This document shows positions 22,782 through 38,243 of a stretch of 42,114 nt of DNA, one piece after another; position 1 is the stretch's first letter; every line of letters begins with the position of its first letter. This DNA is from a virus (Duplodnaviria; Heunggongvirae; Uroviricota; Caudoviricetes): the IMG/VR virus record IMGVR_UViG_2585427728_000007; one strand, given 5' to 3'. A program made the translations under genes and the position numbers. Under the pieces are notes generated by a model. It ran no database searches. It was not told the origin of the DNA and saw only the letters and a program-made list of their open reading frames with translations.

Positions 22782-23000
22782 CGTCTTTACCTTTGTTGCA
22801 ATAAAAAGCCCCGCAAATGCGAGGCTAAATCCTGGTATTTGTAATGAACTGACTCTTATCTCAACGCAGCCCCTTACTGCGCGCCAGATGCTCAATATCA
22901 AGCATCAGCAATGAGATGTTTAATCTGGATTTACTCCAGAAGTGATCACCACCCTGTCTACAGAGCCAGATGTGAAGGATGATGAGTAAAATTATCGCTA

Positions 23001-23438
23001 TCATCGAAGGCATTGCGTCCTGATGTACTCCTGCAGGTAGTTAACCTGCGCGGTTATCCTGTCTATTCCACTTCGGAGACGGTAATAATTGAGTTCAGCA
23101 TCTGCTGTAAGTCTTGGGCTTTCTCCATCGCCCATGCTGCTGGCTCCGGTCGTTGACTTTGCACAGGTGGCGGCGACTTGCAGGCGCTTACGCCCAGCAG
23201 AAACATCAGCACGGAGACTTTCGATAGTCGCGTTAGCATCAGCAAGCTCCTTTGTGTATCTGGCGTCTAGTTCTGCTACATCACGTTGACGCTTCTGCAT
23301 GTCAGCGATGATGGATGCGGCTTTGTCGCGCTGCTCTTTGTAGGCGATGGCGTTATCACGGTAATGATTAACAGCCCATAACAGGCAAACGATGATGCAG
23401 ATAACCAGAGCGGAAATAATCGCGGTGACTCTGCTCAT
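23001..23438 (-). CDS. Rz: i-spanin Rz
   Basis: 145 aa; N-terminal transmembrane segment [23 protein letters not shown] as in lambda Rz, followed by a coiled-coil periplasmic domain; immediately downstream of the endolysin gene. Confidence 0.8.
23063..23245 (-). CDS. Rz1: o-spanin Rz1 (embedded in Rz in the +1 frame)
   Basis: 60 aa ORF wholly inside Rz; lipoprotein signal with lipobox LGVSAC followed by a Pro-rich region ([13 protein letters not shown]), as in lambda Rz1. Confidence 0.75.
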
Positions 23439-23911
23439 ACCTCAATCTCTCTGACCGTTCCGCCCGCTTCTTTGAATTTTGCAATCAGGCTGTCAGCCTT
23501 ATGCTCGAACTGACCATAACCAGCGCCCGGAAGTGAAGCCCAGATATTGCTGCAACGGTCAATTGCCTGACGAATATCACCGCGATCAATCATCGGTAAA
23601 GCGCCACGTTCTTTAATCTGTTGCAGTGCCACAGCGTCCTGGCTTTTCGGAGAGAAGTCTTTCAGGCCAAGCTGCTTACGATAGGCATCCCACCAACGGG
23701 AAAGAAGCTGGTAACGCCCGGCGGCTGTTGATTTGAGTTTTGGGTTTAGCGTGACAAGTTTGCGAGGGTGATCGGAGTAATCAGTGAATAGCTCTCCGCC
23801 TACAATGACGTCATAACCATGATTTCTGGTTTTTTGACGTCCGTTATCAGTTCCCTCCGACCACGCCAGCATATCGAGGAACGCCTTACGTTGATTATTG
23901 ATTTCCACCAT
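23435..23911 (-). CDS. R: Endolysin (lambda R-type lytic transglycosylase)
   Basis: 158 aa; [53 protein letters not shown]... is near-identical to the lambda R protein as recalled. Confidence 0.9.
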
Positions 23912-24218
23912 CTTCTACTCCGGCTTTTTTAGCAGCGAAGCGTTTGATAAGCGAACCAATCGAGTCAGTACCGATGTAGCCGATAAACACGCTCGTTATA
24001 TAAGCGAGATTGCTACTTAGTCCGGCGAAGTCGAGAAGGTCACGAATGAACCAGGCGATAATGGCGCACATCGTTGCGTCGATTACTGTTTTTGTAAACG
24101 CACCGCCATTATATCTGCCGCGAAGGTACGCCATTGCAAACGCAAGGATTGCCCCGATGCCTTGTTCCTTTGCCGCGAGAATGGCGGCCAACAGGTCATG
24201 TTTTTCTGGCATCTTCAT
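23895..24218 (-). CDS. S: Holin / antiholin (lambda S-type, dual start)
   Basis: 107 aa; [39 protein letters not shown]... is near-identical to lambda S, including the Met1-Lys-Met3 dual-start motif. Confidence 0.9.
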
Positions 24219-24343
24219 GTCTTACCCCCAATAAGGGGATTTGCTCTATTTAATTAGGAATAAGGTCGATTACTGATAGAACAAATCCAGGCTACTGTGT
24301 TTAGTAATCAGATTTGTTCGTGACCGATATGCACGGGCAAAAC

Positions 24344-24373
24344 GGCAGGAGGTTGTTAGCGCGACCTCCTGCC
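24344..24373 (-). terminator. Stem-loop with perfect 10 bp stem (possible terminator or processing site) between the tRNAs and S
   Basis: GGCAGGAGGT / ACCTCCTGCC with a 10 nt loop; on the minus strand followed by GTTTTGCC (short U-run). Confidence 0.4.
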
Positions 24374-24460
24374 ACCCGCTTTCACGAAGGTCATGTGTAA
24401 AAGGCCGCAGCATAACTATCACTGATGAATTCAGGATAGCCAGTGGCTACGGCTCAGTTA

Positions 24461-24536
24461 TGGTGCTGGTTAACGGACTTGAACCGCTACCCATTCGCTT
24501 ACAAGGCGACCGCTCTACCATTGGAGCTAAACCAGC
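24461..24536 (-). tRNA. tRNA, anticodon TGT (Thr) by manual fold
   Basis: Minus-strand 76 nt GCTGGTT-TA-GCTC-CAATGGTA-GAGC-G-GTCGC-CTTGTAA-GCGAA-TGGGT-AGCGG-TTCAAGT-CCGTT-AACCAGC-A-CCA; perfect 7 bp acceptor stem, GTTCAAGTC T-loop, U33 and A37 flanking TGT, encoded CCA. Confidence 0.65.
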
Positions 24537-24541
24537 ATGTT

Positions 24542-24616
24542 TGGCGGGACAGCGTGGACTCGAACCACGATAAGAAGGTTAACAGCCTTCCGTAATGACC
24601 TTTATACGACTGACCC
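24542..24616 (-). tRNA. tRNA, anticodon GTT (Asn) by manual fold; atypical D-arm
   Basis: Minus-strand 75 nt GGGTCAG-...-GAAGG-CTGTTAA-CCTTC-TTAT-CGTGG-TTCGAGT-CCACG-CTGTCCC-G-CCA; perfect anticodon and T stems, GGTTCGAGTCC T-arm, one T-T mismatch in the acceptor stem, D-loop lacks the usual GG. Confidence 0.55.
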
Positions 24617-24671
24617 AAATAAAAAAAAGCCACCGTTGCAACTTAAGAGTCACTAACGGCAGCTTACATCT

Positions 24672-25184
24672 TTAAACGGTATGATATTTCATTCTGGCTG
24701 CCTCAAAAGCCGCAGCGGCAAGTTCGGCAGTGTCATGGTATCCAAGGTTAATACACTTTCCAGACGCATTAATTCTTGCTCTCCATTTCCCGTACTTAGC
24801 ATCCCAAGACACGCCACGGTATCCAGATTTATTATTCTTCTGAATTTTCCTGTTTTGCATATTTTCGGAATGAGTGACAAGACGAAGATTTGATATCCGG
24901 TTATCTGTTCTTACCCTGTTGATGTGATCAATAAAACCATCGGGCATGGTGCCATAAACAATCAACCATGCCAGTCTGTGAGCAGGGTATGCTTTACCAT
25001 TAATCATAATCATTAAATACCCATCAGAATTTATTGATGAGCATTTCTTGAAAGCAAAACGAGAGTTCCATGTCAAAGTGGTCCTCTCTCTCCCCTGCCT
25101 CCATCTCCAGTGAAAGTCGCCTGATGATGGATTGTAATCAACAACAGAAAGCACCATTTCTGGCGTTAATTTTATTTCTTTCAT
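24672..25184 (-). CDS. HNH homing endonuclease with AP2-type DNA-binding domain
   Basis: 170 aa; HNH motif ...DGFIDHINRVRTDNRISNLRLVTHSENMQN... plus AP2-like ...GYRGVSWDAKYGKWRARI...; AT-rich gene sitting between Q/pR' and the tRNAs. Confidence 0.75.
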   Translation of the reverse strand: MKEIKLTPEMVLSVVDYNPSSGDFHWRWRQGRERTTLTWNSRFAFKKCSSINSDGYLMIMINGKAYPAHRLAWLIVYGTMPDGFIDHINRVRTDNRISNLRLVTHSENMQNRKIQKNNKSGYRGVSWDAKYGKWRARINASGKCINLGYHDTAELAAAAFEAARMKYHTV

Positions 25185-25302
25185 CGCTTTACCTTAGGGA
25201 TAGAGCCTGTTCGCGTAGATATGACAGCCAAGAGCGGAGCGATGTTTCCACCACCATATCTCAGGCCCATATCACTAAGACTCTTGTTTTGATTGCACGC
25301 GA

Positions 25303-25331
25303 ATGCAAAAAAGCCCACAGGAGGTGGGCTT
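25303..25331 (-). terminator. Rho-independent terminator (tR' candidate) downstream of pR'
   Basis: Minus-strand AAGCCCAC-CTCCT-GTGGGCTT followed by TTTTGC (six U including the stem end); about 45-60 nt downstream of the predicted pR' start. Confidence 0.6.
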
Positions 25332-25371
25332 GTGATGGTTGCTGAATGCAAAAGCAGCAGCATATGTGAAT

Positions 25372-25401
25372 ATTATGGCTAAATGGATAATTGCATGTCA
25401 A
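25372..25401 (-). promoter_or_regulatory. Late promoter pR' candidate (-35 TTGACA, 18 bp spacer, -10 CATAAT)
   Basis: Minus-strand TTGACA at 25401..25396 (inside the last codons of Q), CATAAT at 25377..25372; immediately followed by a terminator, as expected for a Q-antiterminated late promoter. Confidence 0.5.
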
Positions 25402-25897
25402 GGCCTTTAACAGCAACATGCTTAACTTTCTCAACACGTTTACGCATTTTGAAAGCATTTTGCATTGGCTGGTACAAAACAAATAACGACGCTTTCAGGA
25501 TGTCGTCAATTTCGTTTCTACAGGTTGCCAGTGAAGGTTTTCTCCATCCCTCGCCACCACGTCCACACATCTTGCGTGGCTTTGCAGTCGCGTGATAGTA
25601 GGATGCAATTGCTCGCTTAGATGAACCATGAGCGTAGTAGCTGAGGAGGATGCCAAAGGCTTTCTTGTCAATGTACATGACGGAATCGACGACCTGAGAA
25701 ATCAACATTCCATCATCATCATTGCACATTGGCCTTGTCATAACTCTTCCCGGCTCTACGCTCTCCATGAACTTAGCTATTACGCTGCTCATGCGCTTTT
25801 CCAGACGACCTGAATAAACCCATGCGCCCCACAGTTCAAGCCAGCCATTCAGCCACTCATGCTGTTCTTTGGTGAGGTTTAGTTCTCTTATGCCCAC
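25379..25897 (-). CDS. Late gene antiterminator Q-like protein
   Basis: 172 aa ORF at the canonical Q position (after the nin genes, before pR'/tR' and lysis genes); Cys/His-containing. Call rests on synteny rather than strong sequence recognition. Confidence 0.55.
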
Positions 25898-26559
25898 GCG
25901 CCTTCTCCCTGTACCTGAATCAATGTGAGGTTTCCGCAGAACACTGCGCCGGTATCGATATACATCTGGTTGGCAAATTTGAGTGGTTTCACTGCTGGCG
26001 TATGACCAAAGATGAACGTGTCCGCTCCTTTGATTTCTTTTACGATCCCGTCTTGTGAGTTGCTGATTCGTTCGCGGTTCCAGATTACCTGCTGATGATC
26101 AACTGGCTTTCCAAACTCGTATTCGTCACAAGGATAATCGGCGTGGCAGATGACATATTTTTTATCTTTGCTCACCAGTTCGATGATTAACGGAAGTTCA
26201 TCTGCTTTATGGGCAAGAGCTTTAGCCAGAATTTCTTTGTCGTAATCGAGATTAAAGAACCAGCCACCGCCATTAAGCATCCAGTGATTGACGTTTCCGC
26301 GCTCTGATAAGCCATCAATCATCATTTGCTCATGGTTTCCACGTACAGCTCTGAACCAGGGGAATGTGATTAATTCCAGGCATTCGACGTTCTCTGTACC
26401 GCGATCGACCAAATCGCCAACCGAGATAAGCAGGTCTTTTTTGGTGTCGAATCCTATCGTCTCCAGTTTTTTCATCAGGTTCGTGTAGCATCCGTGCAGA
26501 TCGCCAACTACCCAAATATTTCGGTATTTGCTGCCATCAATTCTTTCGTAGATATTCAT
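25888..26559 (-). CDS. Serine/threonine protein phosphatase (lambda NinI-type)
   Basis: 223 aa; metallophosphatase motifs GDLHGC, GDLVDRG, GNHE; closely resembles the lambda phosphatase as recalled. Confidence 0.9.
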
Positions 26560-27167
26560 GCTGCCTCACTTCTGCTGTTTCGCAGTTTTTTAAGTTTCTG
26601 TTGATACTCCGCCTTGATGGTCTTGCACTCTTCGACAGTCCAGCGATGGCGGTTATGGTTTGATTCGATTTCGTCTACTGCTTCCTGCCCGATGCGGTTA
26701 ATCAGTTCGACGCGATACGGAACGAGATTTCCGCTTTTGTGCTGGTTGCACACCACGCATTGCTTGTGAATATTGCGTTCATTAAATCGGAGTTGAGGTG
26801 CCGCAGCAGTTGTCCGGTAATGCCCGGCATCCCACTGAGCAGACGTGAGCGTTCCGCACGAGATACATGGTAAGTCGCGGTCTCTTTCTCTGATGAAGGC
26901 GTTTACGGCTTTTTGGGGTTGTTTAATCCAGTAACTGCGGGGCTTTAAGGCGAGTTTTCGAATCTTAAGTTTATCTTTCTGTTTCTGCTCGTCTCGTCGT
27001 CGTTTCTTCTCTGCTGCTTTTTCCACTTTTTCGCGTTCTTTGCTTCGTCGTTCGAGTGCTATCTTTGTTCCACACTCTGGAGAGCACCACCACTGATTAG
27101 CGAATGCAGGGTGAAACCATTCCCGACATTCATCGTTTTTACATCGTCTTCGCGCTGGTTTAGCCAT
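26556..27167 (-). CDS. ninG: NinG (Rap) recombination-associated protein
   Basis: 203 aa; [41 protein letters not shown]... with the Cys-rich N-terminus and basic stretch of lambda NinG. Confidence 0.8.
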
Positions 27168-27330
27168 CGTCTTCTTCCTCGTACATTGAGCTATTCGGAT
27201 CGCTCATCAGTTCTGCGCAGCAGTGCTCACACACGTGAACTTCCAGCACATGCAGCTTCTGACCGCAGTTAGCGCACGTTAAAGCTCGCTCGACACTTCC
27301 TTGTTCGTAACTTCGATTTTGGTCAATCAC
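27160..27330 (-). CDS. ninF: NinF-like small Cys-rich protein (GTG start; below ORF-track size cutoff)
   Basis: Manual translation gives [56 protein letters not shown] (56 aa), resembling lambda NinF as recalled; GTG overlaps the NinE stop and the stop overlaps the NinG start. Confidence 0.6.
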
Positions 27331-27509
27331 CTTGTTTTCCTCGCACGTTCTCTAAGCCACCGGATATCCCACAGGTGAGCCGTGTAGTTGAAGGTTTTTA
27401 CGTCAGATTCTTTTGGGATTGGCTTGCATTTATTTCTGGAGCGCTTCGTTGGAAGGTATTTGCAGTTTTCGCAGATGATGTCGGTGATACTTCGTCGCTG
27501 TCGTCTCAT
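27327..27509 (-). CDS. ninE: NinE-like protein
   Basis: Start taken at internal ATG 27509 ([60 protein letters not shown], 60 aa), which forms an ATGA overlap with the methyltransferase stop. Confidence 0.6.
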
Positions 27510-28069
27510 GCTGCCCTCCTGACGCCCTGCCCGATCGCCATCAATGCCGCTTTGGATACGGTAGTAAACATCCGTCGAGGACTGATGAACGGTCGCCAAA
27601 TCAGTAGCATTGAGCCTTTGCTGTTTCCCTTCTTCTCCAGCCCTGTCGATGGTTCGATAAAATTAATCCGTCCATCAGTGATGATGCGAACTTCGTCAAC
27701 ACTCTCCAGAGCCTTGCTGAACCATCCGACAGACATATCCTCTGGCACAAGCATAACTACCGTCTGTCGCTGTTGTATGCACTGCTCAGCGGCTTTTTCC
27801 ACCCACGGCCTGATATTGCTGTACGGTGGGTTATTCCAGATTGCACCGTGGCTTACCCACTCAGAATTGAGCGCGTCGTCGGCCTCAGTTAGCCAGTGAG
27901 CACACAGAGCATTTTTGTCGCTCGCTGCCGAATCCAGCCAGAATCCAAACTCAATATCCAGTGCATCAAAAAGCCAAAGCGGCGTTTGCCAGCAGTCCTT
28001 GTCGTGTGCTGGCGTATTTGATTTAATTGTCACTCTACTTGCCTCTCCTTTAGATCCCGGTACTCGCAA
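27506..28069 (-). CDS. DNA N6-adenine methyltransferase (phage orphan MTase)
   Basis: 187 aa; catalytic NPPY motif ([13 protein letters not shown]) and conserved [15 protein letters not shown]-terminal region; no adjacent restriction gene. Confidence 0.8.
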
Positions 28070-28455
28070 TTATCAGGAATAGTTAGTCGTAATCCCTTCT
28101 GATGCGCCCACTGGTCAATATCGGTCAGATACTTGTGCATATCTCCAATATCAAGCTGCCGTGTTGATTTAACGCATCGTGTAATATTAAAAATCGTCAC
28201 CCTTTTTGCCGGACAATATATATCTTTCAGCCACTCATGAACCTCTTCCGGTGTAAAACTTTCACCAGAAACAGCGGATAATTGCGCGGCTATTTCTGCA
28301 TTCCACACCCACATCAGATTGTTTTGTGACAATGTACGCTTCTCACGGTACTCAGATATTTTGATTCGCCAGCGCTTGCCGGTAGAAAGGATTTGTTTCA
28401 GAACTAACCAGAATTGTGATTTATTGGTTTCGTGCAGAATGAAATCATTCATCAT
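28030..28455 (-). CDS. ninB: NinB recombination protein
   Basis: 141 aa; MMNDFILHETNKSQFWLVLKQILSTGKRWRIKISEYREKRTLSQNNLMWVWNAEIAAQL... matches lambda NinB as recalled. Confidence 0.8.
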   Translation of the reverse strand: MMNDFILHETNKSQFWLVLKQILSTGKRWRIKISEYREKRTLSQNNLMWVWNAEIAAQLSAVSGESFTPEEVHEWLKDIYCPAKRVTIFNITRCVKSTRQLDIGDMHKYLTDIDQWAHQKGLRLTIPDNCEYRDLKERQVE

Positions 28456-28672
28456 CAGTCATCAAATCTAATTGCTGGATAATTCTGTCACACTGAAAAT
28501 CATTATCGATTTTAACCAACCGACGAAGAACACGGTCACGCGGATAGCTCCGTGGCTTAGGGGCGCTTTTCTGTCTCTCGTCAGTAGGAAGTCTGGAAGC
28601 AGACCAGTACCGCTTTGCACGGCCAATGTTCTCCTGAAAGTCGGCGCGGACAAGCTCAGCTATCGTACTCAT
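28445..28672 (-). CDS. Hypothetical protein (nin region)
   Basis: 75 aa ORF between the tR2-like terminator and ninB; basic. Confidence 0.45.
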   Translation of the reverse strand: MSTIAELVRADFQENIGRAKRYWSASRLPTDERQKSAPKPRSYPRDRVLRRLVKIDNDFQCDRIIQQLDLMTDDE

Positions 28673-28700
28673 TTCTTAAAGCCTCCAATTACTCTCCCCC

Positions 28701-28731
28701 AAATAAAAAGGCCTGCGATTACCAGCAGGCC
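28701..28731 (-). terminator. Rho-independent terminator (tR2-like) after the helicase gene
   Basis: Minus-strand GGCCTGC-(8 nt loop)-GCAGGCC followed by TTTTTATTT; located just downstream of the DnaB-like gene, the position of lambda tR2. Confidence 0.55.
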
Positions 28732-28760
28732 TGTTATTAGCTCAGTGATGTAGATGGTCA

Positions 28761-30212
28761 TCAGAATCCTCCTTTCTTCTTGGATTGCGGTTCCTCGCGT
28801 TCACGGCGGCGCATTTCAGCAGACTGTTGGTCTGTGTCATAAATAGCGCCATTTGCCTGAATGCAATACACCGTGCCGGTATTGCCATGACGATTGAGAC
28901 GAAGGATTAGTTCGGTTTCACCAGGCGGAACACTGTCATCAAAAGCACCTTCACGATGGATCCCCACCCAATAATCGCAATCCTGTTCAATCTGCCCTGT
29001 ATCGCGCGAGTCACTTGGTAATGGGCGTTTATTGGTTCGGCTTTCCAGTGCGCGGTTAAGCTGCGTCAGAAGCACAACAACGCAATCAAGCTCTTTGGCA
29101 AGGTTCTTCAGTCCTTTGGTGATCATGCCGTAAGCAAGGTCGTTACGATCGGCTTTCTCAGCGGTCATTAGTGTCAGGTAATCGACCAGAATCATGCCAA
29201 CACATCCTTTTTCTCGCTTGATTCGACGGCTTTCGCTGACGATTTGAGCCAGAGATAATCCCGGCGTGTCGTCGATGTAAAGCAGGTCGATTTCACTCAA
29301 GCGATTGGCTGTTTCGATCGCCCTGTTGAAGTCACCATCGTAATCACCCTGATAGCCGTCATCGGCGTCATTTGTCGCCGGAAGGTAAAAAATATTCGGG
29401 TTAACACCAGACTTCTGCCCTACCAGTTTTTCCAGTATCTGATCACCTGGCATTTCAAGGCTGAACATCAGAGCGGGCTTTTTCTCATGCACTGCGCAGT
29501 TGATTGCCATCTGGCTGTATAGCGTCGTTTTCCCCATCTTAGGGCGAGCGCCAATGACAAACAGAGAGCCTTTCACCAGACCTTTCGGTGACAGCATCCT
29601 GTCCAGCGATGGGATCCCTGTGCTCATTCCCCGTTGTTCGCCTGATGGGTCAAATCGCTTCTCAAGGTCGCTAACCCAGTCTTCCATGACCTCACCAAAT
29701 GAACGAAGGCCGCGACGCGATCCGGTTTTTGCATGGTCTGTCAGTTGCGTGAAAATCGACTGAATAGCTTCGTACTTCTGCGTTGCAGTCATTCCGTTGC
29801 GGGAATAGAGCAATTCCGTCGCTTCAGTCATGCGGTTGATGGCGTAGCGTTCCATTGCGGTTTCACGAACCTGCATTGCATAGGCAACGATGTTTGCTGC
29901 GCTTGGCGTGTTCTTTGCGATCTCAGCGATATAAGCAAAACCGCCAACAGACACCGTTAACGATTTACGCTCCAGTTCATCGAAAAGCGTCAGGCCATCT
30001 ACTGGCTTTTGCTCACGGTGCATTCTGGTTATTTCTTCGAAAAGGATTTTGTGTGGTCGGCTGTAAAATGAATCAGGCTTCAGCATCGCCAGAACTTTCT
30101 GGACGCGCTCACTGCTGTCATCATCCAGAAGCAATCCACCAATCACCGCCTGCTCTGCCTCGATGCTATGGGGCGGCGCATAAAAATTATCGGTCATCGT
30201 GTTCACCCTCAC
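28761..30212 (-). CDS. Replicative DNA helicase (DnaB family)
   Basis: 483 aa; N-terminal DnaB-like region and Walker A GARPKMGKTTL in a RecA-like C-terminal domain; follows the O-like initiator gene. Confidence 0.9.
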   Translation of the reverse strand: MRVNTMTDNFYAPPHSIEAEQAVIGGLLLDDDSSERVQKVLAMLKPDSFYSRPHKILFEEITRMHREQKPVDGLTLFDELERKSLTVSVGGFAYIAEIAKNTPSAANIVAYAMQVRETAMERYAINRMTEATELLYSRNGMTATQKYEAIQSIFTQLTDHAKTGSRRGLRSFGEVMEDWVSDLEKRFDPSGEQRGMSTGIPSLDRMLSPKGLVKGSLFVIGARPKMGKTTLYSQMAINCAVHEKKPALMFSLEMPGDQILEKLVGQKSGVNPNIFYLPATNDADDGYQGDYDGDFNRAIETANRLSEIDLLYIDDTPGLSLAQIVSESRRIKREKGCVGMILVDYLTLMTAEKADRNDLAYGMITKGLKNLAKELDCVVVLLTQLNRALESRTNKRPLPSDSRDTGQIEQDCDYWVGIHREGAFDDSVPPGETELILRLNRHGNTGTVYCIQANGAIYDTDQQSAEMRRREREEPQSKKKGGF

Positions 30213-31077
30213 GAACTTTCAGGTAGGTATTATCGTTAAGCAGGAAATCAAATCCCTTTTTGTGCCAGACGGTTCCGCGTTGATGGTTTGGGCGCTCTTC
30301 GAACATCCATCGGCAATTTTCGCCTACGTAGCTCAAATAATTTCTCCAGTCCTGCATCGTGAAACCATGCCCATCAAGCTGGCGGGTTATCACTCCGGCT
30401 TTGCGCCAGAACGTTCGGATCTGGTTTTTACGCTTGTCATTCAGTGCGCGGATTCTTGGCGCTTCAGGAAGGATTTCGTGGTAAGCATCGACAACATCCT
30501 GACAGCTAACGGAAGGTTTTTTCTTGTCAGACTTTTTGTCTGCTGTGGCACTCTCTAATACGTCAGTATTAGAGATATTATTTATATTATTGTTTATGGA
30601 CAACCGTTGGACAACCGTTGGACAATCTCCGCTGAGAGCCGCGCCATTACTGGTGTTTGCGTTGGACAACCGTTGGACAACCGTTGGACAATTTTTTGCC
30701 TGAAAATCGTCATATTTAACGATTGTAAACAGGCTAAATTTCTTCCCCATCGAGCAAATATTAAGCATCCCTTTCGACTCAAAAGTCCGTAATAAGCTCC
30801 GAACTTTGTTGTCGGGGATGAATGTTTCTCTGACCAGCGACGGGCGTCCAGTTATCATCTGACCGCGATCAACAGTTATCGGCCCGATATCCGTATTGAC
30901 GACAGTAGATTCGTGATTAGCCTTGAGGATTAAGTGAAGCCAAAGATGTACTGCCTGAGAGTCCTTATAGAGCCTGCTGTCCATAAACTGGCGGTGTATA
31001 GAGACATACCCCATACTGGATGCCTCCTGATGTTGTACAGGGTTATGCCTGTAATCAGCTAACTTAACGACGCCCAT
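30187..31077 (-). CDS. Replication initiator (lambda O-like), with ori iterons inside the gene
   Basis: 296 aa; position after cII and before the helicase; coding sequence contains six 11 bp iterons that encode the repeated peptide CPTVVQRLSN; the true start may be the internal Met (MGYVSIHRQF...). Confidence 0.7.
   Translation of the reverse strand: MGVVKLADYRHNPVQHQEASSMGYVSIHRQFMDSRLYKDSQAVHLWLHLILKANHESTVVNTDIGPITVDRGQMITGRPSLVRETFIPDNKVRSLLRTFESKGMLNICSMGKKFSLFTIVKYDDFQAKNCPTVVQRLSNANTSNGAALSGDCPTVVQRLSINNNINNISNTDVLESATADKKSDKKKPSVSCQDVVDAYHEILPEAPRIRALNDKRKNQIRTFWRKAGVITRQLDGHGFTMQDWRNYLSYVGENCRWMFEERPNHQRGTVWHKKGFDFLLNDNTYLKVREGEHDDR
30597..30695. repeat. Replication origin iterons: 6 copies of TGGACAACCGT-like 11 bp unit in two clusters
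   Basis: Copies begin at 30597, 30608, 30619 and 30663, 30674, 30685; the clusters are 44 bp (4 x 11) apart, so all copies are in phase; flanked on the low-coordinate side by an AT-rich stretch (30560-30596). Confidence 0.8.
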
Positions 31078-31225
31078 GTTTCACTCCTGCTTTGGCTAGT
31101 CTGTAAACACCAACAAGGCGCTCTGCGAACGCCCTGTTATTTGCTGCGGCTACCACTAATCCCTCAGGTGAATCAGGGTGTCGAATCTCTTCTTTTTCCT
31201 GGTATTTCTTACGACGTTTTGTCAT
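31064..31225 (-). CDS. Hypothetical small basic protein between cII and O (not in ORF track)
   Basis: Manual translation MTKRRKKYQEKEEIRHPDSPEGLVVAAANNRAFAERLVGVYRLAKAGVKHGRR (53 aa); AGGAG six nt upstream of the ATG; stop overlaps the O start. Confidence 0.35.
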   Translation of the reverse strand: MTKRRKKYQEKEEIRHPDSPEGLVVAAANNRAFAERLVGVYRLAKAGVKHGRR

Positions 31226-31257
31226 AATTACTCCTGTGGATTGATCCAGTAATTACC

Positions 31258-31554
31258 TCAGAATTGCATATCAATTTGCTCAGAATCCTCGGTGGCAGCC
31301 GGGGATTTTTTCTTTGCGATTCCATCCAATGCATACTTAAAAGCCCTGCTAATCGGACTGATGTCTGATGCCATTCCGAAAGCACACAAGACCGAAGCAA
31401 TAAATCTCCAGTCCGTTCTGCTTATCTTCGATTCATGACAGCCAATCATCTTTGCCAGACCGCGCTGGGTAAGCGTTGACAGGTTGATGAGTAAATCTGT
31501 TTCTGCGCGATCAACGTCGCGCTGTGATAGTTTGCTGTAACTTGTTTGTTCCAT
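31258..31554 (-). CDS. cII: CII-like transcriptional activator
   Basis: 98 aa; HTH region LTQRGLAKMIGCHESKISR and C-terminus KKKSPAATEDSEQIDMQF resemble lambda CII (C-terminus ...KKRPAATERSEQIQMEF as recalled). Confidence 0.8.
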   Translation of the reverse strand: MEQTSYSKLSQRDVDRAETDLLINLSTLTQRGLAKMIGCHESKISRTDWRFIASVLCAFGMASDISPISRAFKYALDGIAKKKSPAATEDSEQIDMQF

Positions 31555-31638
31555 TTCTTATGATTCCAATAGTGAATATTTAGCTGAAAGGTATGCGTGG
31601 AAACGCATATGACCTTAGTTGGTCAGATATCTTGGGGC

Positions 31639-31684
31639 TCGCTTTGTCAGCGACGTAGGACGAATGTCCATTGTGAAAAGAGCG
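31639..31684 (-). promoter_or_regulatory. nutR candidate: boxA (CGCTCTTTT) and boxB hairpin (UCGCU-GACAA-AGCGA)
   Basis: Minus-strand boxA-like CGCTCTTTT at 31684..31676, eight nt after the cro stop; boxB-like hairpin at 31653..31639 with a 5 bp stem and GACAA loop. The 22 nt boxA-boxB spacer is longer than in lambda. Confidence 0.55.
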
Positions 31685-31691
31685 GTGTTAC

Positions 31692-31925
31692 TTATGCTGC
31701 TGATGCTCTACGCGATACGAACACCAGGTTTTCCTTTTTCACGGGTTTATAGGCCGTGAAATTACGAGTAGCTTCTTCGATTGCATTCGCTTTATCAGGG
31801 GAAGCTCTTCGAAATCCATATGCAATCTGGTCAAGATAGCCAACTGAAGTTTTCGCTAATGCGGCGAGTCGCTTCCATTCCTCACTAGAAGCCTCTTTTC
31901 GCCAGCGTAGTAGTTCATTACTCAT
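31692..31925 (-). CDS. cro: Cro-like repressor (HTH protein divergent from cI)
   Basis: 77 aa; HTH segment KTSVGYLDQIAYGFRRASPDKANAIEEA; divergently transcribed from cI across the operator region; GGAGG Shine-Dalgarno. Confidence 0.65.
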   Translation of the reverse strand: MSNELLRWRKEASSEEWKRLAALAKTSVGYLDQIAYGFRRASPDKANAIEEATRNFTAYKPVKKENLVFVSRRASAA

Positions 31926-31936
31926 TAGTGCCTCCG

Positions 31937-32020
31937 TTTATCATACAGAATAACTTTACCATTTTGATAAATCAACCGCAATGTAAATTTATCATATTGC
32001 GTATTTATCCATTTGCTAAA
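31937..32020. promoter_or_regulatory. Right operator region (oR) with pR / pRM; repeated TTTATC-N5-GATAAA sites
   Basis: 17 bp sites TTTACCATTTTGATAAA (31955-31971) and TTTATCCATTTGCTAAA (32004-32020), plus half-sites at 31937 and 31988; candidate pR on the minus strand has -35 TTGATT (31975..31970) and -10 TATTCT (31952..31947) bracketing the first site. Confidence 0.55.
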
Positions 32021-32038
32021 TAGAGGGAAAATTGTGAG

Positions 32039-32743
32039 ATGGAAAACAAAGATATTCGCAAATCGAATCTGGCGTTTTTGCTAGATGAGCATAAAAAAAT
32101 CGCGGGTAACACTAATGCAAGCTTTGCCGATAAGCTTGGGGTTAGCCCTTCTCAACTCACGCAAGTCTCCGGTGAAAAAAGCACTCGAAACATAGGGGAT
32201 AAACTAGCAAGAAAATTTGAAGCCGCACTTGGGTTACCTAATGGGTGGCTTGATTTGGTACATGATGTAACACCAATTGCATCATGCTCAGATTCTTTAA
32301 CTTTTGTCGGTCAGGTAAGAAAAGGGTTAGTGCGCGTGGTTGGTGAGGCAATTCTTGGTGTTGATGGTGCCATCGAGATGACCGAAGAGCGCGATGGGTG
32401 GCTCAAAATTTATAGCGATGATCCAGATGCCTTTGGCCTTCGTGTGAAAGGAGACAGCATGTGGCCTAGAATAAAATCAGGAGAATATGTACTCATTGAG
32501 CCTAACACCAAAGTATTCCCGGGTGATGAGGTGTTTGTCAGAACCGTTGAAGGACACAACATGATTAAGGTTCTTGGCTATGACAGAGATGGAGAATACC
32601 AATTTACAAGCATCAACCAAGACCACAGGCCAATAACGTTGCCTTATCATCAAGTAGCAAAGGTGGAGTATGTGGCTGGTATTCTGAAGCAATCTCGCCA
32701 TCTGGATGACATCGAGGCAAGGGAGTGGCTGAAAAGTTCGTGA
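32039..32743 (+). CDS. cI: CI-type repressor (N-terminal HTH, C-terminal S24 LexA-like peptidase domain)
   Basis: 234 aa; HTH around FADKLGVSPSQLTQV; C-terminal domain with the Ser (GDSMWP) and Lys (MIKVLG) of the autocleavage dyad; divergent from cro. Confidence 0.9.
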   Translation: MENKDIRKSNLAFLLDEHKKIAGNTNASFADKLGVSPSQLTQVSGEKSTRNIGDKLARKFEAALGLPNGWLDLVHDVTPIASCSDSLTFVGQVRKGLVRVVGEAILGVDGAIEMTEERDGWLKIYSDDPDAFGLRVKGDSMWPRIKSGEYVLIEPNTKVFPGDEVFVRTVEGHNMIKVLGYDRDGEYQFTSINQDHRPITLPYHQVAKVEYVAGILKQSRHLDDIEAREWLKSS

Positions 32744-32812
32744 CTTCATCGTCCCATAGCTGATAGCCAGTGGCCTGAAGAGACGTTTGGATGATTTTAA
32801 GGAAATATCTTC

Positions 32813-33253
32813 ATGAGAGAAGAAAAAATAATAACAATCTACACAACGGCGGTAAAACCCGGGCTGGCAATCACTCCTTTTATGACACCAGATCCTATAA
32901 TAGTGTCGGAAGAATACCCTTGTTCCGGCTCATTTTACCTAACTGCAATAATGTACTTCGAGCACGAAAAAAAATACACTACCGAACTTGATGTCGTATT
33001 CAATGGAGAATCGGTTTTACCTGATATCTCTAGCAATCAAGAGCAACTGCAAACATTTATGTTTTCTCCTGTCAATGAAAAATATGTTGTGGTTGGCACA
33101 TATCTTTTCGTTAAAAACATCAAACTTATAGAAACAGGAACATATGACATAATTTATCGCATCTTTGAAGACATTGATGGTAATCTTAGCGAAGTTATTG
33201 ATGAAAAAAAATGCGCTCTTATTTCAACCACCCCGAACAGAGATAAGGAATGA
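32813..33253 (+). CDS. Hypothetical protein, first gene of the cI-adjacent accessory cassette
   Basis: 146 aa; AT-rich coding sequence; ATG preceded by AAGGA; no terminator between the cI stop and this gene; no recognisable domain. Confidence 0.6.
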   Translation: MREEKIITIYTTAVKPGLAITPFMTPDPIIVSEEYPCSGSFYLTAIMYFEHEKKYTTELDVVFNGESVLPDISSNQEQLQTFMFSPVNEKYVVVGTYLFVKNIKLIETGTYDIIYRIFEDIDGNLSEVIDEKKCALISTTPNRDKE

Positions 33254-33606
33254 AACGACATCTGTACGCTGTGCCTCTTGACAGGAGTAAAGTTGATAAT
33301 TTTCCACATAACCACCATAATGATGAGACATATGGTGGTGGTAACGGTGGAGGTGGTGACATGTTACAGCGCATAAAAATTCTTGAAGATAAAGTCGCAA
33401 CCATGGCGACCGACATCGCTGTAATTAAGTCTAACTATGCAACATCTGCCAATGTAGAATCTGTTAAAACAGACATAGCTAATGCAAAAGCAGAACTTCA
33501 CAGCGCAATGAGACTCCAAGCCATGGCTATTATTGGTTCAGTTCTTGCAGCCGTTGGAACTGGTGTTGGGTTAATAATAAAAATGATGCCATCACTACCT
33601 CACTAA
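33250..33606 (+). CDS. Hypothetical membrane-anchored coiled-coil protein, second gene of the cassette
   Basis: 118 aa; ATGA overlap with the upstream gene; Gly-rich stretch YGGGNGGGGD, predicted coiled coil (LQRIKILEDKVATMATDIAVIKSN...VKTDIANAKAELHSAMRLQ) and a single C-terminal hydrophobic helix AMAIIGSVLAAVGTGVGLIIKMM. Confidence 0.6.
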   Translation: MKRHLYAVPLDRSKVDNFPHNHHNDETYGGGNGGGGDMLQRIKILEDKVATMATDIAVIKSNYATSANVESVKTDIANAKAELHSAMRLQAMAIIGSVLAAVGTGVGLIIKMMPSLPH

Positions 33607-33616
33607 GAATCTACAC

Positions 33617-33644
33617 AACCCGGCCTCAGCGCCGGGTTTTCTTT
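33617..33644 (+). terminator. Rho-independent terminator ending the cI-cassette operon
   Basis: AACCCGGC-CTCAGC-GCCGGGTT followed by TTCTTT, beginning 11 nt after the stop of the 118 aa gene. Confidence 0.65.
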
Positions 33645-33822
33645 GCCTCTCGATCCCCCACCTAAAAAACATAACTCATTGTATTTATTGAAAAACTGAT
33701 TGATACAACTTGCTAAACCACGCAATCCAGATCTCCCTCAAATCTCTTTATTTATCCTGTCGAATTCCTACAACAAAATAAAACACCATAAGAATCAATA
33801 CGATATTTGAAAATCAAAAGAA

Positions 33823-33866
33823 TTTATCATTTTGCTATTGCCATTAATTTATCATTCCGATAAAGT
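33823..33866 (+). promoter_or_regulatory. Left operator region (oL) with pL candidate
   Basis: 17 bp site TTTATCATTCCGATAAA (33848-33864) with perfectly inverted outer hexamers, plus a weaker site at 33823-33839, same motif as at oR; candidate pL -35 TTGCCA (33838-33843), 17 bp spacer, -10 TAAAGT (33861-33866), overlapped by the operator. Confidence 0.5.
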
Positions 33867-33934
33867 TTGCCCATCAGCAGGACGCACTACTCACCAGGGC
33901 GGTGAATATACAACGATTCGAATATGAATCTACG

Positions 33935-33949
33935 GCGCTGACAAAGCGC
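33935..33949 (+). promoter_or_regulatory. nutL boxB hairpin (GCGCU-GACAA-AGCGC)
   Basis: GCGCTGACAAAGCGC: 5 bp stem with GACAA pentaloop, the P22-type boxB as recalled; lies between pL and the N-like gene. No clear boxA identified. Confidence 0.6.
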
Positions 33950-34210
33950 AATAACCAAAGTGAACTTTGGGGTGTGGTGAAGCCAGCTAGTCACTGGCAA
34001 GTGCTTACCTACTGTTGAGCGGTGAAGCGCTCCCAACGCTAGCAATAGCGTGGACGAGATGGGGAGCCGCGGGCGATAAGGCCGCCATAACGCGCACGTT
34101 GTCGCATGGAAAAATCACTGGGGTGCCGGTTATACCCCTCCGAATGAGACTCAACAAGCTGGAGCTAGACTACCAGCCACCACACCACCAAAGTTCATCA
34201 GGAGGTCTAT

Positions 34211-34594
34211 ATGACACGCAGAACTCAGTTCAAAGGCAATTCACGTTCTCGTCGTCGTGAGCGTTTAAAGGCAAAGGCATTAGCTAACGGCGTACTGGCC
34301 CGCGAAGAAGCAATAAGTTCAGAAGTATTACACCGCCCTACTCTAAGCAGAGCGCAGATTCAGGCTAAAGGTACTCACGAAACGCCTGAGCGCATAGAAG
34401 ACGCTAAGCCAATTAAGTTCATGGCACAGGACGTGATCTGGCAACAGAAAGAATACAGACGCAATCTGGAGCGAGTGGCCATTGTGTACGCGAATGAGTT
34501 TGGACATAAGCAACCAGAAACTGGTGTATGTCTTCCAAACGTAGCCATTTACGCGGCAGGCTACCGGAAATCAAAACAACTGACAGCAAGATGA
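34211..34594 (+). CDS. N: N-like transcription antiterminator (P22 gp24-type)
   Basis: 127 aa; N-terminal arginine-rich motif GNSRSRRRERLKAKALA; C-terminus LPNVAIYAAGYRKSKQLTAR resembles P22 N as recalled; first gene downstream of pL/nutL; GGAGG Shine-Dalgarno. Confidence 0.65.
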   Translation: MTRRTQFKGNSRSRRRERLKAKALANGVLAREEAISSEVLHRPTLSRAQIQAKGTHETPERIEDAKPIKFMAQDVIWQQKEYRRNLERVAIVYANEFGHKQPETGVCLPNVAIYAAGYRKSKQLTAR

Positions 34595-34653
34595 CTTGTG
34601 TTGGTCGCCAGAAAATGAAATTAGGCAGTAAGCTACTGTATGAGGGGTGAGAT

Positions 34654-34842
34654 ATGCATAAATGTCAGTTCTGTGGATACATGTTTGAATCAAATGAAAT
34701 GCAACGTATTTCGTTAAACCTTATCGGTAGGCCATACAACATTTGCCTAGGATGTAGCGAGAAATACAAAAACAAAGACATGTGGGACGACAATAAAAAC
34801 GATATCGACTGGAATAAAGTGCCATGTATTGATGATAGTTAA
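34654..34842 (+). CDS. Hypothetical small zinc-ribbon protein (early-left accessory gene)
   Basis: 62 aa with two CxxC pairs (C5/C8 and C31/C34); AT-rich; GAGGGGTGAG before the ATG. Confidence 0.5.
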   Translation: MHKCQFCGYMFESNEMQRISLNLIGRPYNICLGCSEKYKNKDMWDDNKNDIDWNKVPCIDDS

Positions 34843-34922
34843 AAATAATTATGCCGCATAGTCGGCCTTCTTTTGGCATAAACAACAGAATAAACACTGC
34901 ACTGAATTATTTGAGGTGAGAT

Positions 34923-35393
34923 ATGACAAAATCATGGAGCGTACCTTTTCCTGAATCAGAAACTGAACATGATGGAATGCCTGTTTTCTGGAGATTCCAA
35001 GCGACAGTTGAAGAAGATGGAATCAAAATATTCGCACTTCAATATATAGCTTTTCATCAGACAGAGCATTATGCATGGTTGGTTCCTGCGCATTGGATTG
35101 TTAATTTTAAACCAGCACCAAATCAGTGGTTACAGGAATGGAAACAAAGGAGAAATAGATATGCAATTAAGAAAGTAGCAAAAAATGCAGAAAGATCTTT
35201 TGCGTTCCCGACGAAGAAACTTGCCATTGAAAGTTTATTGCGCCGGAAGAAATACCATTTGATGAGAATCAAACAAGATTTGGCTGTTGTATCAACTCTT
35301 GTTGATGGGATGAAGAATATTGATACATCAACACCAGATATTGAATATAACTTTGGACACAACCAAGAAACAGAAAATTGGGTGTTTTATTAG
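34923..35393 (+). CDS. Hypothetical protein (early-left accessory gene)
   Basis: 156 aa ORF in an AT-rich block; translation-initiation region (TGAGGTGAGATATG) nearly identical to that of the preceding small gene; no recognisable domain. Confidence 0.5.
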   Translation: MTKSWSVPFPESETEHDGMPVFWRFQATVEEDGIKIFALQYIAFHQTEHYAWLVPAHWIVNFKPAPNQWLQEWKQRRNRYAIKKVAKNAERSFAFPTKKLAIESLLRRKKYHLMRIKQDLAVVSTLVDGMKNIDTSTPDIEYNFGHNQETENWVFY

Positions 35394-35497
35394 TATGAAT
35401 AAGCACTGTGTATTCATTCCAACGAGTGAATACACGGAGCAATGTCGCTCGTAACTAAACAGGAGCCGACTTGTTCTGATTATTGGAAATCTTCTTT

Positions 35498-35524
35498 GCC
35501 CTCCGATGTGAGGGCGATTTTTTT
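35498..35524 (+). terminator. Rho-independent terminator in the pL operon
   Basis: GCCCTC-CGATGT-GAGGGC followed by GATTTTTTT, ending 13 nt before the ATG of the coiled-coil gene. Confidence 0.55.
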
Positions 35525-35536
35525 GATGGAGGATAT

Positions 35537-36505: not shown

Positions 36506-37052
36506 TAAAACCAACATAAGGAACCACCCATGATTTACGCAATCGCGGGAGGCGCTCGCATGGGTGCCTTCCAATTAAATGAATCTTTACTTGAACGAAT
36601 CACCCGTAAATTACGTGACGGATGGAAAAGAGTTGAGGTCTTATTATGCGCAATGAAATAGCCATCAATCACCAGATGCTTCGTGCTGCACAGAACAAAG
36701 CAGTAATAGCCAGATTTATTGGTGATTCAAAAATGTGGCTTGAAGCAAATAAAGCGATGAAATCAGCTATCAACCTTCCGTGGTATCGCAGGAAATGAGT
36801 TTTACAGATAACTGGTCAGACGAAGAATTCATTCGTCAGATGAAAGAATTAATCGGTAACGAAGGAGATATTCATGTCACTTGCAACCACAGTGAAGGAG
36901 AGCAAGTTACAGAGACGCATGTACACGCAGAAAGCTCTCTGGTATCGCCATAATGGCGACCGCGAAGGAATGCGGGTATGCCTTAATTTGTCCCGAGTCG
37001 AAGTATTAAATCAGCGTTATTTCCTTGGGCCGTGTCCATTCTGAGGTGAATT

Positions 37053-38234: not shown

Positions 38235-38243
38235 GAGCTGAAT

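Follow-up and report, generated by a model that had tools for sequence, protein, structure and literature searches.

Two late-leader tRNA genes beside an HNH-AP2 endonuclease in a probable mosaic lambdoid prophage, with a tRNA-Thr closely resembling the nuclease-resistant one of phage 21

The region between the antiterminator gene Q and the lysis genes of the window (the whole 42,114-nucleotide stretch of DNA analysed here, numbered from its first letter) is best read, with a probability of roughly 0.65, as the late-leader region of a mosaic lambdoid prophage of the Sf6/phage-21 type. According to this reading, the two tRNA genes of the leader are functional, the tRNA-Thr is probably nuclease-resistant and the tRNA-Asn would be so likewise, the neighbouring HNH endonuclease gene is a selfish element and a hairpin that follows the tRNA genes is unrelated to them. 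Public records of phage 21, Sf6, HK629 and E2348/69 already annotate the two tRNAs, the HNH cassette and even the precise way in which they adjoin. The tRNA-Thr is a one-base variant of a tRNA with a published anti-defence function, a role that the initial annotation of this DNA had missed. What is left is a prediction, namely that in temperate coliphages the accompanying tRNA-Asn(GUU) likewise replaces its host counterpart and resists nuclease attack.

The locus is read from the minus strand, in the order Q, the late promoter pR', terminator T1, an HNH_3+AP2 open reading frame (ORF), terminator T2, tRNA-Asn(GUU), tRNA-Thr(UGU), a 10-bp hairpin and the lysis genes S/R/Rz. Its features are located as follows:

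25379-25897, minus strand: Q antiterminator gene of the phage-21 family (Pfam Phage_antitermQ, 1.1e-25)
25372-25401, minus strand: late promoter pR' (-35 TTGACA at 25401-25396; -10 CATAAT at 25377-25372)
25357-25364, minus strand: -10-like element TATGCTGC, placed by alignment in the register of the phage 21 sigma-dependent pause element (TAAGCT)
24659-25356, minus strand: 698-bp segment that phage 21 and Sf6 lack (alignments)
25307-25331, minus strand: terminator T1, AAGCCCACCTCCTGTGGGC followed by a T run (terminator scan)
24672-25184, minus strand: free-standing HNH_3 + AP2 endonuclease ORF, 170 aa
24621-24666, minus strand: second copy of the pause-element sequence (TAAGCT) with terminator T2, T2 itself occupying 24665-24621
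24542-24616, minus strand: tRNA-Asn(GUU), 75 nt, CCA encoded, discriminator G73
24461-24536, minus strand: tRNA-Thr(UGU), 76 nt, CCA encoded, G1-C72 and C2-G71
24344-24373, minus strand: perfect 10-bp hairpin with a 10-nt loop, followed by GUUUUG (fold)
23895-24218, minus strand: lambda-type holin gene S with a dual start (Pfam Phage_holin_3_1, 2.4e-30; lambda alignment)

The initial annotation had placed two tRNA genes with encoded CCA ends on the strand of the late transcript, after Q/pR' and before the holin gene, and had named tRNA prediction as a check; ARAGORN, which calls Thr-tgt and Asn-gtt, and the Rfam model RF00005 agree on both. ARAGORN found exactly two tRNAs in the whole 42 kb of the window; each lies on the minus strand, Asn being transcribed first and Thr second after a spacing of 5 nt. 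RF00005 scores them at 55.3 bits (Asn, E = 2e-10) and 61.2 bits (Thr, E = 5e-12), against a gathering score of 29, and an Rfam scan of 23000-27000 returned no credible families besides tRNA. Single-sequence minimum free energy (MFE) folding did not reproduce the Thr cloverleaf and gave weak z-scores of -1.5 and -1.7; this type of folding is uninformative for tRNAs, and the covariance model and covariation were relied upon instead.

An unusual D-arm in the second tRNA had raised the question of whether it is functional. Oddities are indeed present, but in both tRNAs: tRNA-Asn has C9, a D-stem with U13.U22 and an acceptor stem with U4.U69, and tRNA-Thr has C14 in place of the near-universal A14, together with G27.A43. 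The canonical tertiary nucleotides (U8, A14, G18, G19 and those of the T-loop) are found in Asn alongside its oddities; Thr departs from them at position 14. The hint of a pseudogene did not survive comparison with relatives. Homologues from a Klebsiella phage retain C14 and G27.A43 (Thr) and U4.U69 and U13.U22 (Asn), and all five of the five changed base pairs are compensatory and none disruptive, in what is a small sample of two lineages. Conservation of the oddities, coupled with exclusively compensatory change at paired positions, argues for functional genes rather than pseudogenes, and the phage 21 tRNA-Thr, identical at 75 of 76 positions and with the same oddities as the window tRNA-Thr, works in vivo. 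What we take to be the identity elements are intact in both tRNAs (G73 and GUU for Asn; G1-C72, C2-G71, G35 and U36 for Thr). Judged from these comparisons, both are probably functional genes under selection, whose products would be expressed, processed and charged.

The tRNA-Asn is identical to the phage 21 and Sf6 copies over its full length (75/75), and the sole change that separates the tRNA-Thr from that of phage 21 is A26G, at an unpaired position, with the anticodon arm identical. The same tRNA module is present in Sf6, BTP1, SPN9CC, HK446, mEp506 and others. Among complete E. coli genomes the pair occurs in 369 of 5426, and it is 95-100% conserved across these 369 genomes and many Salmonella and Shigella phages. 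Both Asn(GUU) and Thr(UGU) are also present in T5 and in a Klebsiella lambdoid phage, and in P1 a separate Asn(GUU) and Thr(UGU) again lie side by side, the P1 Asn being unrelated in sequence (45/76); this lack of relationship points to independent selection for the combination. The tRNAs are wholly absent from lambda and HK629. The Thr gene has decayed in phage L and has recombined with host thrU in JLK-2012, which suggests that it is dispensable in some contexts.

The Q protein shares 86% identity with that of phage 21, the N-terminal 94 aa being identical. The promoter pR', which overlaps the end of Q, scores 11/12 matches in the promoter scan and sits where pR'/QBE is annotated in phage 21 and Sf6. 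It is the sole sigma-70-like promoter that the scan recovered on the coding strand, where none was found for HNH or the tRNAs. A hexamer annotated as 'pR'' in HK629, downstream of T1, was judged less likely than this 11/12 promoter matching phage 21/Sf6. An 8-bp direct repeat within pR', AATTATCC ATTTAGCC at 25392-25377, lies in the slot of the phage-21 Q-binding element and is a putative Q-binding element, although its 8-mers are different sequences from those of phage 21 (ATTGAGCA/AATGAGCA). TATGCT sits at the pause-element register of the window leader, and it is from this register that TATGCTGC is considered a putative pause element. For phage 21, a template with pR'21 from -40 to -1 and a pause element set at the native position yields Q21-loaded complexes in vitro (bioRxiv 10.1101/651190).

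The single tR' of the earlier layout proved to be wrong, as the terminator scan, folds and alignments identify two terminators, T1 between pR' and HNH and T2 between HNH and tRNA-Asn. T1 folds at -17.2 kcal/mol (z = -3.2), is annotated as a rho-independent terminator in HK629 and is present without HNH in strain WCHEC115106. T2, which folds at -20.4 kcal/mol (z = -4.3) and is followed by U8, has exactly the sequence of the tR' annotated in Sf6 and phage 21 and was found in 827 of the 5426 E. coli genomes. In the mechanism that we propose, polymerase initiating at the constitutive pR' would halt at T1, or at T2 after reading through T1, unless modified by Q. Q-modified polymerase would pass both terminators and generate one RNA covering HNH, the two tRNAs, the block upstream of S and the lysis and structural genes, from which host RNase P and 3'-processing enzymes would excise the tRNAs.

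The expected role of the tRNA-Thr follows from its phage 21 counterpart. The P2 Old nuclease destroys host tRNA-ThrU, a single-copy minor tRNA that is the only decoder of ACA, via paired CNG motifs in the anticodon stem; this tRNA is its fastest substrate, with slower cleavage of Lys(UUU), Asn(GUU) and Val(UAC) (PMC12445682). The phage 21 tRNA-Thr21 decodes ACA and rescues cells, protecting those that express Old and Gam, and resists purified Old (Govande 2025, NAR, PMC12445682). The resistance features named are C28U/G42A and a shorter stem, the CNG change alone having left tRNA-ThrU non-resistant, and the protection afforded by a further phage tRNA, tRNA-Thr6, depends on its UGU anticodon (PMC12445682). 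In the window tRNA-Thr, nucleotides 28-30/40-42 are UCG/CGA and are accompanied by the G27.A43 mispair, compared with CUG/CAG and 5 bp in the host. In common with tRNA-Thr21, it possesses U28-A42 (for C28-G42) and the stem shortening caused by G27.A43, while the window variant differs in having G26 and in being situated behind two terminators. The window Thr(UGU) has the features of the tRNA-Thr21 class, namely the UGU anticodon, an altered CNG and a shortened stem, and protection is predicted from them; as for tRNA-Thr21, it would serve as a nuclease-resistant stand-in for host tRNA-ThrU. HepS (Gifsy-1) was set aside as the relevant nuclease, as it reads the anticodon loop, which is unchanged in phage Thr, such that evasion is not predicted.

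Objections to a role against Old in this particular genome arise from gene content and from timing. The phage carries a P22-type Abc2 at 39297-39593, and Gam was not found among the 10 leftward-operon ORFs scanned, an 86-aa ORF at 41076-41336 being outside the scan. Abc2 is reported not to trigger P2 Old (PMC12445682), and for these reasons the tRNA-Thr may be useless against Old here. Old is triggered early, by Gam, whereas two terminators precede the tRNAs and make their expression dependent on Q.

For the tRNA-Asn, the argument is based on motifs. Host tRNA-Asn(GUU) is a substrate of Old as well as of AriB, the Toprim nuclease of PARIS, and neither enzyme's described motif is found in the phage Asn: the host CGG/CCG and U36AAUCC are replaced in the window by AAG/CUU and U36AACCU, with A for U at D-loop position 16. 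The Asn(GUU) would replace a secondary target of these two nucleases. The phage Asn anticodon stem is not shortened, the Klebsiella Asn homologue regains paired CNG motifs (CAG/CUG) and the P1 Asn keeps an optimal AriB-type UAAUCA. No experiment on a lambdoid (phage-21-type) tRNA-Asn was found in the literature searched; the T5 tRNA-Asn has been tested genetically and contributes to PARIS rescue (PMC12409363). A more ambitious proposal is that Asn and Thr constitute a dedicated anti-Toprim cassette against P2 Old and PARIS AriB, standing in for a primary (ThrU) and a secondary (Asn) target common to the two, assembled independently in lambdoids and P1 and spread, in this lineage, by HNH cutting HNH-less leaders during co-infection or co-induction. 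We put this forward tentatively, with the odds against it; the Thr half is published, while the Asn half, the P1 convergence and the HNH linkage are unpublished.

An alternative to Old, which we consider possible but doubtful, is that the pair is aimed mainly at PARIS AriB. The targets of AriB are Lys(UUU), Thr(UGU) and Asn(GUU) (Belukhina et al. 2025, PMC12409363), and the pair would replace two of these three principal targets. AriB cleavage is abolished by U39A and reduced by A41C and U16C (PMC12409363), and both window tRNAs differ from their host equivalents at 39, 41 and 16, although the phage tRNAs are only 63-71% identical to those of the host and three differences at chosen positions are not improbable by chance. 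In all phage Thr(UGU) tRNAs compared, those of the window, the Klebsiella phage, P1 and T5, C31-G39 takes the place of host A31-U39, and PARIS is known to restrict lambda (PMC9122126). Against this, the P1 Asn retains its UAAUCA motif, and no tRNA-Lys(UUU) was found in the window by ARAGORN, whereas Lys is necessary for rescue from B185 PARIS (PMC12409363). It is the absence of Lys(UUU) that led us to demote PARIS as the main target.

Codon supply, the classical account of phage tRNAs and of ileZ/argN/argO in Stx phages, would have the pair provide additional Thr(ACA/ACG/ACU) and Asn(AAC/AAU) decoding for the late protein burst, and is here distinctly unlikely. The tRNAs would be co-transcribed with the late genes and, when Thr, Asn and Lys codon use was compared between 57 greedy window ORFs and 60 annotated K-12 genes, Thr codons overall were somewhat more frequent in late genes (69 per 1000) than in the E. 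coli sample (55 per 1000). However, the comparison of codon usage that had been suggested for these genes does not favour the idea, with ACA accounting for 14% of Thr codons in late genes (9.4 per 1000) and 17% in E. coli (9.5 per 1000). This lack of ACA enrichment in late genes weakens the case for codon supply, and the early genes, whose expression precedes that of the tRNAs, have a higher ACA share (31%). Nor are Asn codons rare, and four asn tRNA genes exist in E. coli. The status of tRNA-ThrU as a single-copy minor tRNA would suit codon supply, but extra host tRNA-ThrU protects little against Old whereas the phage versions protect (PMC12445682). Sequence, rather than dose, is thus what matters.

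That the tRNAs are hitchhiking relics, or processing punctuation between the leader/HNH RNA and the lysis mRNA with no part in decoding, is extremely improbable: relatives do lack them (lambda, HK629) or hold decayed or chimeric copies (phage L, JLK-2012) and unusual mismatches are found in both, but every paired-position difference from the Klebsiella homologues is compensatory, the 95-100% conservation extends over many phages of Salmonella and Shigella as well as the 369 E. coli genomes, the presumed identity elements are intact in the sequences, and the UGU anticodon needed by tRNA-Thr6 is shared by the 75/76-identical and also protective tRNA-Thr21.

On the preferred reading, the tRNAs function without any need of HNH. 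An AT-rich HNH endonuclease with an AP2 domain had been described directly upstream of the tRNAs, and this is confirmed by Pfam matches to HNH_3 (66.1 bits, 2.1e-18) and AP2 (35.1 bits, 1.6e-08; cutoff 33.3) and by a GC content of 40.9%, compared with 50% for the window. The ORF also matches PHROG 99 (2.8e-73) and the AP2 domain of plant WRI1 in the PDB. The protein is 100% identical to HK629 gp061 and falls below 45% identity with all other phage HNH proteins of the collection, and a 1201-nt query region shares 99.2% identity with HK629 where aligned. The cassette was found in 41 of the 5426 E. coli genomes, in all cases at a DNA identity of at least 99% (99.6% in E2348/69), and 20 of these 41, E2348/69 included, have the exact HNH-T2-tRNA junction.

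Alignment with HNH-less phages, which the initial annotation had recommended for defining the insertion site, delimits a 698-bp insert at 24659-25356 relative to phage 21/Sf6. It separates the pause-element position from the older pause-element/tR'. Within this segment lie the remainder of leader B, T1, a spacer of 122 nt and the HNH ORF; its two ends are marked by the imperfect repeat TATGCTGC / TAAGCTGC and fall at the microhomologies TA(T/A)GCTGC and GGCTTTTTT. HNH-less alleles exist for both flank types, represented by Sf6/phage 21 and by WCHEC115106. Restriction to 41 of 5426 genomes, occurrence with or without tRNAs and low GC suggest a mobile element, and HNH is probably a sporadic, low-GC, selfish insert in the late leader. 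The HNH_3+AP2 gene would be a selfish free-standing cassette that landed inside the leader, having either brought in or retained an upstream terminator. Recombination between terminator or pause-element microhomologies could equally account for the insert boundaries.

The hairpin downstream of the tRNA genes had been described as a perfect 10-bp stem-loop that could act as an attenuator or processing site. The stem is as described, and folds together with its flanks at -23.6 kcal/mol (z = -2.7), but its association with the tRNAs did not stand. It is 100% identical to lambda 45031-45060 and lies within a conserved S-upstream block that is present both in phages with tRNAs (Sf6) and in those without (lambda, HK629, WCHEC115106), and HK629, WCHEC115106 and Sf6 have uncompensated changes at or next to the stem. 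On these grounds, the idea of an attenuator or processing site tied to the tRNAs was rejected; by alignment, the hairpin is lambda's own S-upstream sequence and is unrelated to the tRNAs. It may be a weak terminator in view of its GUUUUG tail, though the terminator scan makes no call. A CCCC..GGGG stem at 24226-24238 precedes holin gene S.

Should the prediction for the tRNA-Asn prove true, the repeated pairing of Asn with Thr in lambdoids and P1 would be accounted for, and the idea of counter-defence by phage tRNAs would extend from large virulent to small temperate phages.

Among known systems, phage 21 (OL657228, AJ237660) has the same order of Q, pR', pause element, tR', tRNA-Asn, 5 nt and tRNA-Thr. 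It is without the 698-bp insert of the window, its Q and Q-binding-element-like repeats are diverged and, downstream, it has a pinholin and SAR endolysin in contrast to the lambda-type S/R/Rz of the window. The E2348/69 prophage HNH (WP_000658764) is embedded in the same Q-HNH-tRNA-Asn-tRNA-Thr-holin order as that of the window, whereas in HK629 HNH is found without tRNAs and T2 is followed by a lambda-type segment of ~190 nt. A search for a tRNA hidden in the lambda-type replacement segment gave only an 18-bit match to the tmRNA model, a member of the tRNA clan, and no ARAGORN call.

Similarities also extend to more distant phages. Stx phages carry the tRNA genes ileZ, argN and argO downstream of pR'/tR', with Q-dependent expression. 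The slot between Q and the lysis genes is shared with the window, but the tRNA species differ and the window is without toxin genes. The T5 Lys/Thr/Asn variants that neutralise AriB (PMC12409363) include the same two anticodon species, both of which depart from the host sequence at or beside the cleavage site between positions 40 and 41, and C31-G39 is shared by the Thr tRNAs of T5 and the window. However, the T5 tRNAs are distant in sequence (49/76, 48/78), include a Lys(UUU) that is absent from the window and belong to a large tRNA cluster rather than a temperate late operon. Free-standing HNH and Seg homing endonucleases occur within the tRNA gene clusters of T4 and T5, with hegA/C/D located among the T5 tRNAs in the T5 annotation, and HNH-AP2 endonucleases were reportedly treated by Magnani et al. 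in 2004. Like the T4 and T5 enzymes, the window HNH combines a nuclease with a small DNA-binding domain, adjoins tRNA genes and is sporadic in distribution, its homing being putative.

The tRNA genes and HNH endonuclease gene between Q and the lysis genes are real, correctly identified and ordinary, as every component and their combination is already publicly annotated. Since the tRNA pair, the gene order, the GC content of the HNH gene and a hairpin upstream of S are all confirmed, the initial annotation was accurate except for the order of the tRNAs; tRNA-Asn is transcribed first and tRNA-Thr second.

Features of the Q-to-lysis region
Minus strand, neighbouring gene: NinG
Minus strand, neighbouring gene: NinI-like phosphatase
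25897-25379, minus: Q antiterminator
25401-25372, minus: pR' promoter (TTGACA-18-CATAAT; sigma-70 scan), overlapping the end of Q
25331-25307, minus: terminator T1, then a 122-nt spacer and the HNH gene
25184-24672, minus: HNH_3+AP2 protein, 170 aa
24665-24621, minus: terminator T2, directly after the HNH stop codon and abutting tRNA-Asn
24542-24616, minus: tRNA-Asn(gtt), ARAGORN; Rfam tRNA model, 55.3 bits
24461-24536, minus: tRNA-Thr(tgt), ARAGORN; Rfam tRNA model, 61.2 bits
24373-24344, minus: 10-bp hairpin, fold confirmed
24218-23895, minus: lambda-type holin S
Minus strand, lysis genes: R and Rz

The tRNAs thus lie, as proposed, on the late-transcript strand between Q and the holin gene. 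A promoter and terminator do precede them, but the late leader contains two terminators rather than the expected one. The only good sigma-70 promoter found on the coding strand is pR', whose position coincides with the annotated pR' of Sf6 and phage 21, and T2 is identical in sequence to the annotated tR' of both phages. Alignment with phage 21, which lacks the HNH gene, delimits a 698-bp insert (25356-24659) flanked by an imperfect 8-bp repeat, TATGCTGC ... TAAGCTGC, that contains a sigma-dependent pause element; a -10-like TATGCT occupies the phage 21 pause-element register in the window. As Q21-loaded complexes form in vitro on pR'21 positions -40 to -1 with a natively placed pause element (bioRxiv 10.1101/651190), Q loading should survive this insertion. 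An 8-bp direct repeat, AATTATCC ATTTAGCC (25377-25392, minus), sits at the position of the phage 21 Q-binding element, and we infer that Q would bind there. The phage 21 repeats at this position read ATTGAGCA AATGAGCA (L015:1130-1145). The window Q is 86% identical to Q21, its C-terminal half having diverged in parallel with the repeats, and Q specificity may co-vary with its site.

The HNH gene was described as AT-rich, with an AP2 domain, and its 40.9% GC (50% for the window) and domain content bear this out. Its product belongs to PHROG 99, a very large family, and matches 3783 phage records, of which only HK629 exceeds 60% identity. The features fit a putative selfish free-standing endonuclease, given the sporadic distribution, near-identical copies across backgrounds, low GC and intergenic site by tRNA genes. 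The insert boundaries fall on microhomologies, TA(T/A)GCTGC and, at the terminator ends, GGCTTTTTT, a pattern that ordinary illegitimate or homologous recombination could also produce.

The modules are found in several combinations. The leader segment ahead of T1 (leader B) occurs with T1 and without HNH in E. coli WCHEC115106, and with T1, HNH and T2 in phage HK629, where the tRNAs are absent and T2 joins a ~190-nt lambda-like segment; tR' with both tRNAs and no HNH is found in phage 21, Sf6, BTP1, SPN9CC and many others. Among 5426 complete E. coli genomes, T2 is present in 827, the tRNA pair in 369, the HNH cassette in 41 (all at least 99% identical) and the HNH-T2-tRNA-Asn junction in 20. 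The exact arrangement is already annotated in the E2348/69 prophage, while the window overall is an Sf6/IME10-like mosaic identical to no deposited phage. Prophages of E. coli O157:H7 (H202-H206) keep T2 and only the first ~24 nt of tRNA-Asn, apparently what truncation has left of the tRNA module. E. coli NCTC9112 (L007:1501-1759) is a deletion derivative of the HNH cassette: leader B, T1 and the spacer are kept, but the HNH ORF breaks off after 68 nt, and the DNA from there to a SASA-family esterase gene is unrelated. The ~190-nt segment that replaces the tRNA pair in WCHEC115106 (L006:1570-1790), HK629 (L001:3280-3480) and lambda (L014:1000-1200) has at its end a perfect T-arm-like GCCGGTTCGATTCCGGC followed by an acceptor-like strand and then CCA; ARAGORN calls no tRNA in it and Rfam gives a weak 18.4-bit match to tmRNA, of the tRNA clan. 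Possibly this is what remains of a tRNA-like gene in the lambda slot.

The hairpin's 10-bp stem is real, but its suggested link to the tRNAs is ruled out. Its 30 nt are 100% identical to lambda 45031-45060 and lie within a ~240-nt block upstream of S that lambda, HK629, WCHEC115106 and Sf6 share with or without tRNAs, and substitutions at or beside the stem in the last three are uncompensated. It is perhaps a weak terminator or mRNA-stability element.

ARAGORN accepts both tRNAs, the only two in the whole 42-kb window; their Rfam scores compare with a gathering score of 29 bits, and both encode the 3' CCA, as anticipated. Not only the second tRNA but both have unusual features (C9, U13.U22 and U4.U69 in tRNA-Asn; C14 in place of A14, and G27.A43, in tRNA-Thr). 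A Klebsiella lambdoid phage whose corresponding slot holds Asn, Phe, Thr and Arg tRNAs shares these oddities, and changed pairs are compensatory. Ten of the 15 differences between the window and Klebsiella gene pairs fall in five base pairs, with both sides changed and pairing kept, the other five affect unpaired nucleotides, and no pair is broken. What we take to be the identity elements of AsnRS (G73 and GUU) and ThrRS (G1-C72, C2-G71, G35 and U36) are intact. Compared with phage 21, tRNA-Asn is identical (75/75) and tRNA-Thr differs only at unpaired position 26 (75/76). A boost to codon supply explains the pair poorly: the ACA share of Thr codons is 14% in late genes, lower than in ordinary K-12 genes (17%) or phage early genes (31%).

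A counter-defence function for the Thr tRNA is already published. P2 Old, the Toprim nuclease responsible for the classic interference between P2 and lambda, is lethal because it removes the anticodon arm of host tRNA-ThrU(UGU), cleaving at paired CNG motifs (nt 28-30 and 40-42), with Lys(UUU), Asn(GUU) and Val(UAC) as slower substrates; cells are rescued by phage tRNA-Thr(UGU) genes, explicitly including tRNA-Thr21 of phage 21 (Govande et al., NAR 2025, PMC12445682). The resistance of tRNA-Thr21 to purified Old is put down to C28U/G42A together with a shorter stem; in the same study, altering the motif by itself did not suffice for resistance (PMC12445682). The window Thr has the tRNA-Thr21 anticodon arm, GUCGC/GCGAA, in contrast to the host ACUGA/UCAGU. 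Old is triggered early, however, whereas the window tRNAs are predicted to be Q-dependent behind two terminators. A P22-type Abc2 (anti-RecBCD; 39297-39593, plus strand; Pfam 4.1e-61) is encoded, and Gam is absent among the 10 leftward-operon ORFs scanned, a set exclusive of an 86-aa ORF at 41076-41336; Old is reportedly not triggered by Abc2 (PMC12445682). Degraded or chimeric Thr genes also occur. In Salmonella phage L cII-101 (L009:1287-1358) the second tRNA, labelled Leu(TAA), is a Thr homologue with an anticodon-loop deletion (Rfam, 42 bits). The annotated tRNA-Thr of JLK-2012 (L008:1287-1362), upstream of tRNA-Gly(UCC) and tciA/tciB, is a chimera of a phage-type 5' half and a 3' half nearly that of host thrU, with a broken anticodon stem (rejected by ARAGORN; Rfam, 49 bits).

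The sole point of remaining, if mild, interest is the companion tRNA-Asn(GUU), on motif grounds a candidate nuclease-resistant replacement likewise. The PARIS nuclease AriB acts on Lys(UUU), Thr(UGU) and Asn(GUU), with U39, A41 and U16 determining sensitivity (Belukhina et al. 2025, PMC12409363), and PARIS restricts lambda (PMC9122126). Both window tRNAs are unlike the host at all three positions; ARAGORN finds no Lys(UUU) tRNA in the 42-kb window. Against the motif argument for Asn, the Klebsiella Asn regains CAG/CUG and the P1 Asn retains UAAUCA. In P1, too, an Asn(GUU) and a Thr(UGU) gene lie side by side (L011:1425-1578), with tciA and tciB ~0.9 kb downstream beyond a small ORF. The P1 Asn sequence is not related to that of the lambdoid tRNA (45/76), which suggests that Asn(GUU) and Thr(UGU) may have been selected independently in P1 and lambdoid phages. 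The proximity of the window HNH gene to tRNAs is paralleled in T5 (L012, record positions 26000-42000), where the HNH genes hegA, hegC and hegD lie among tRNA genes.
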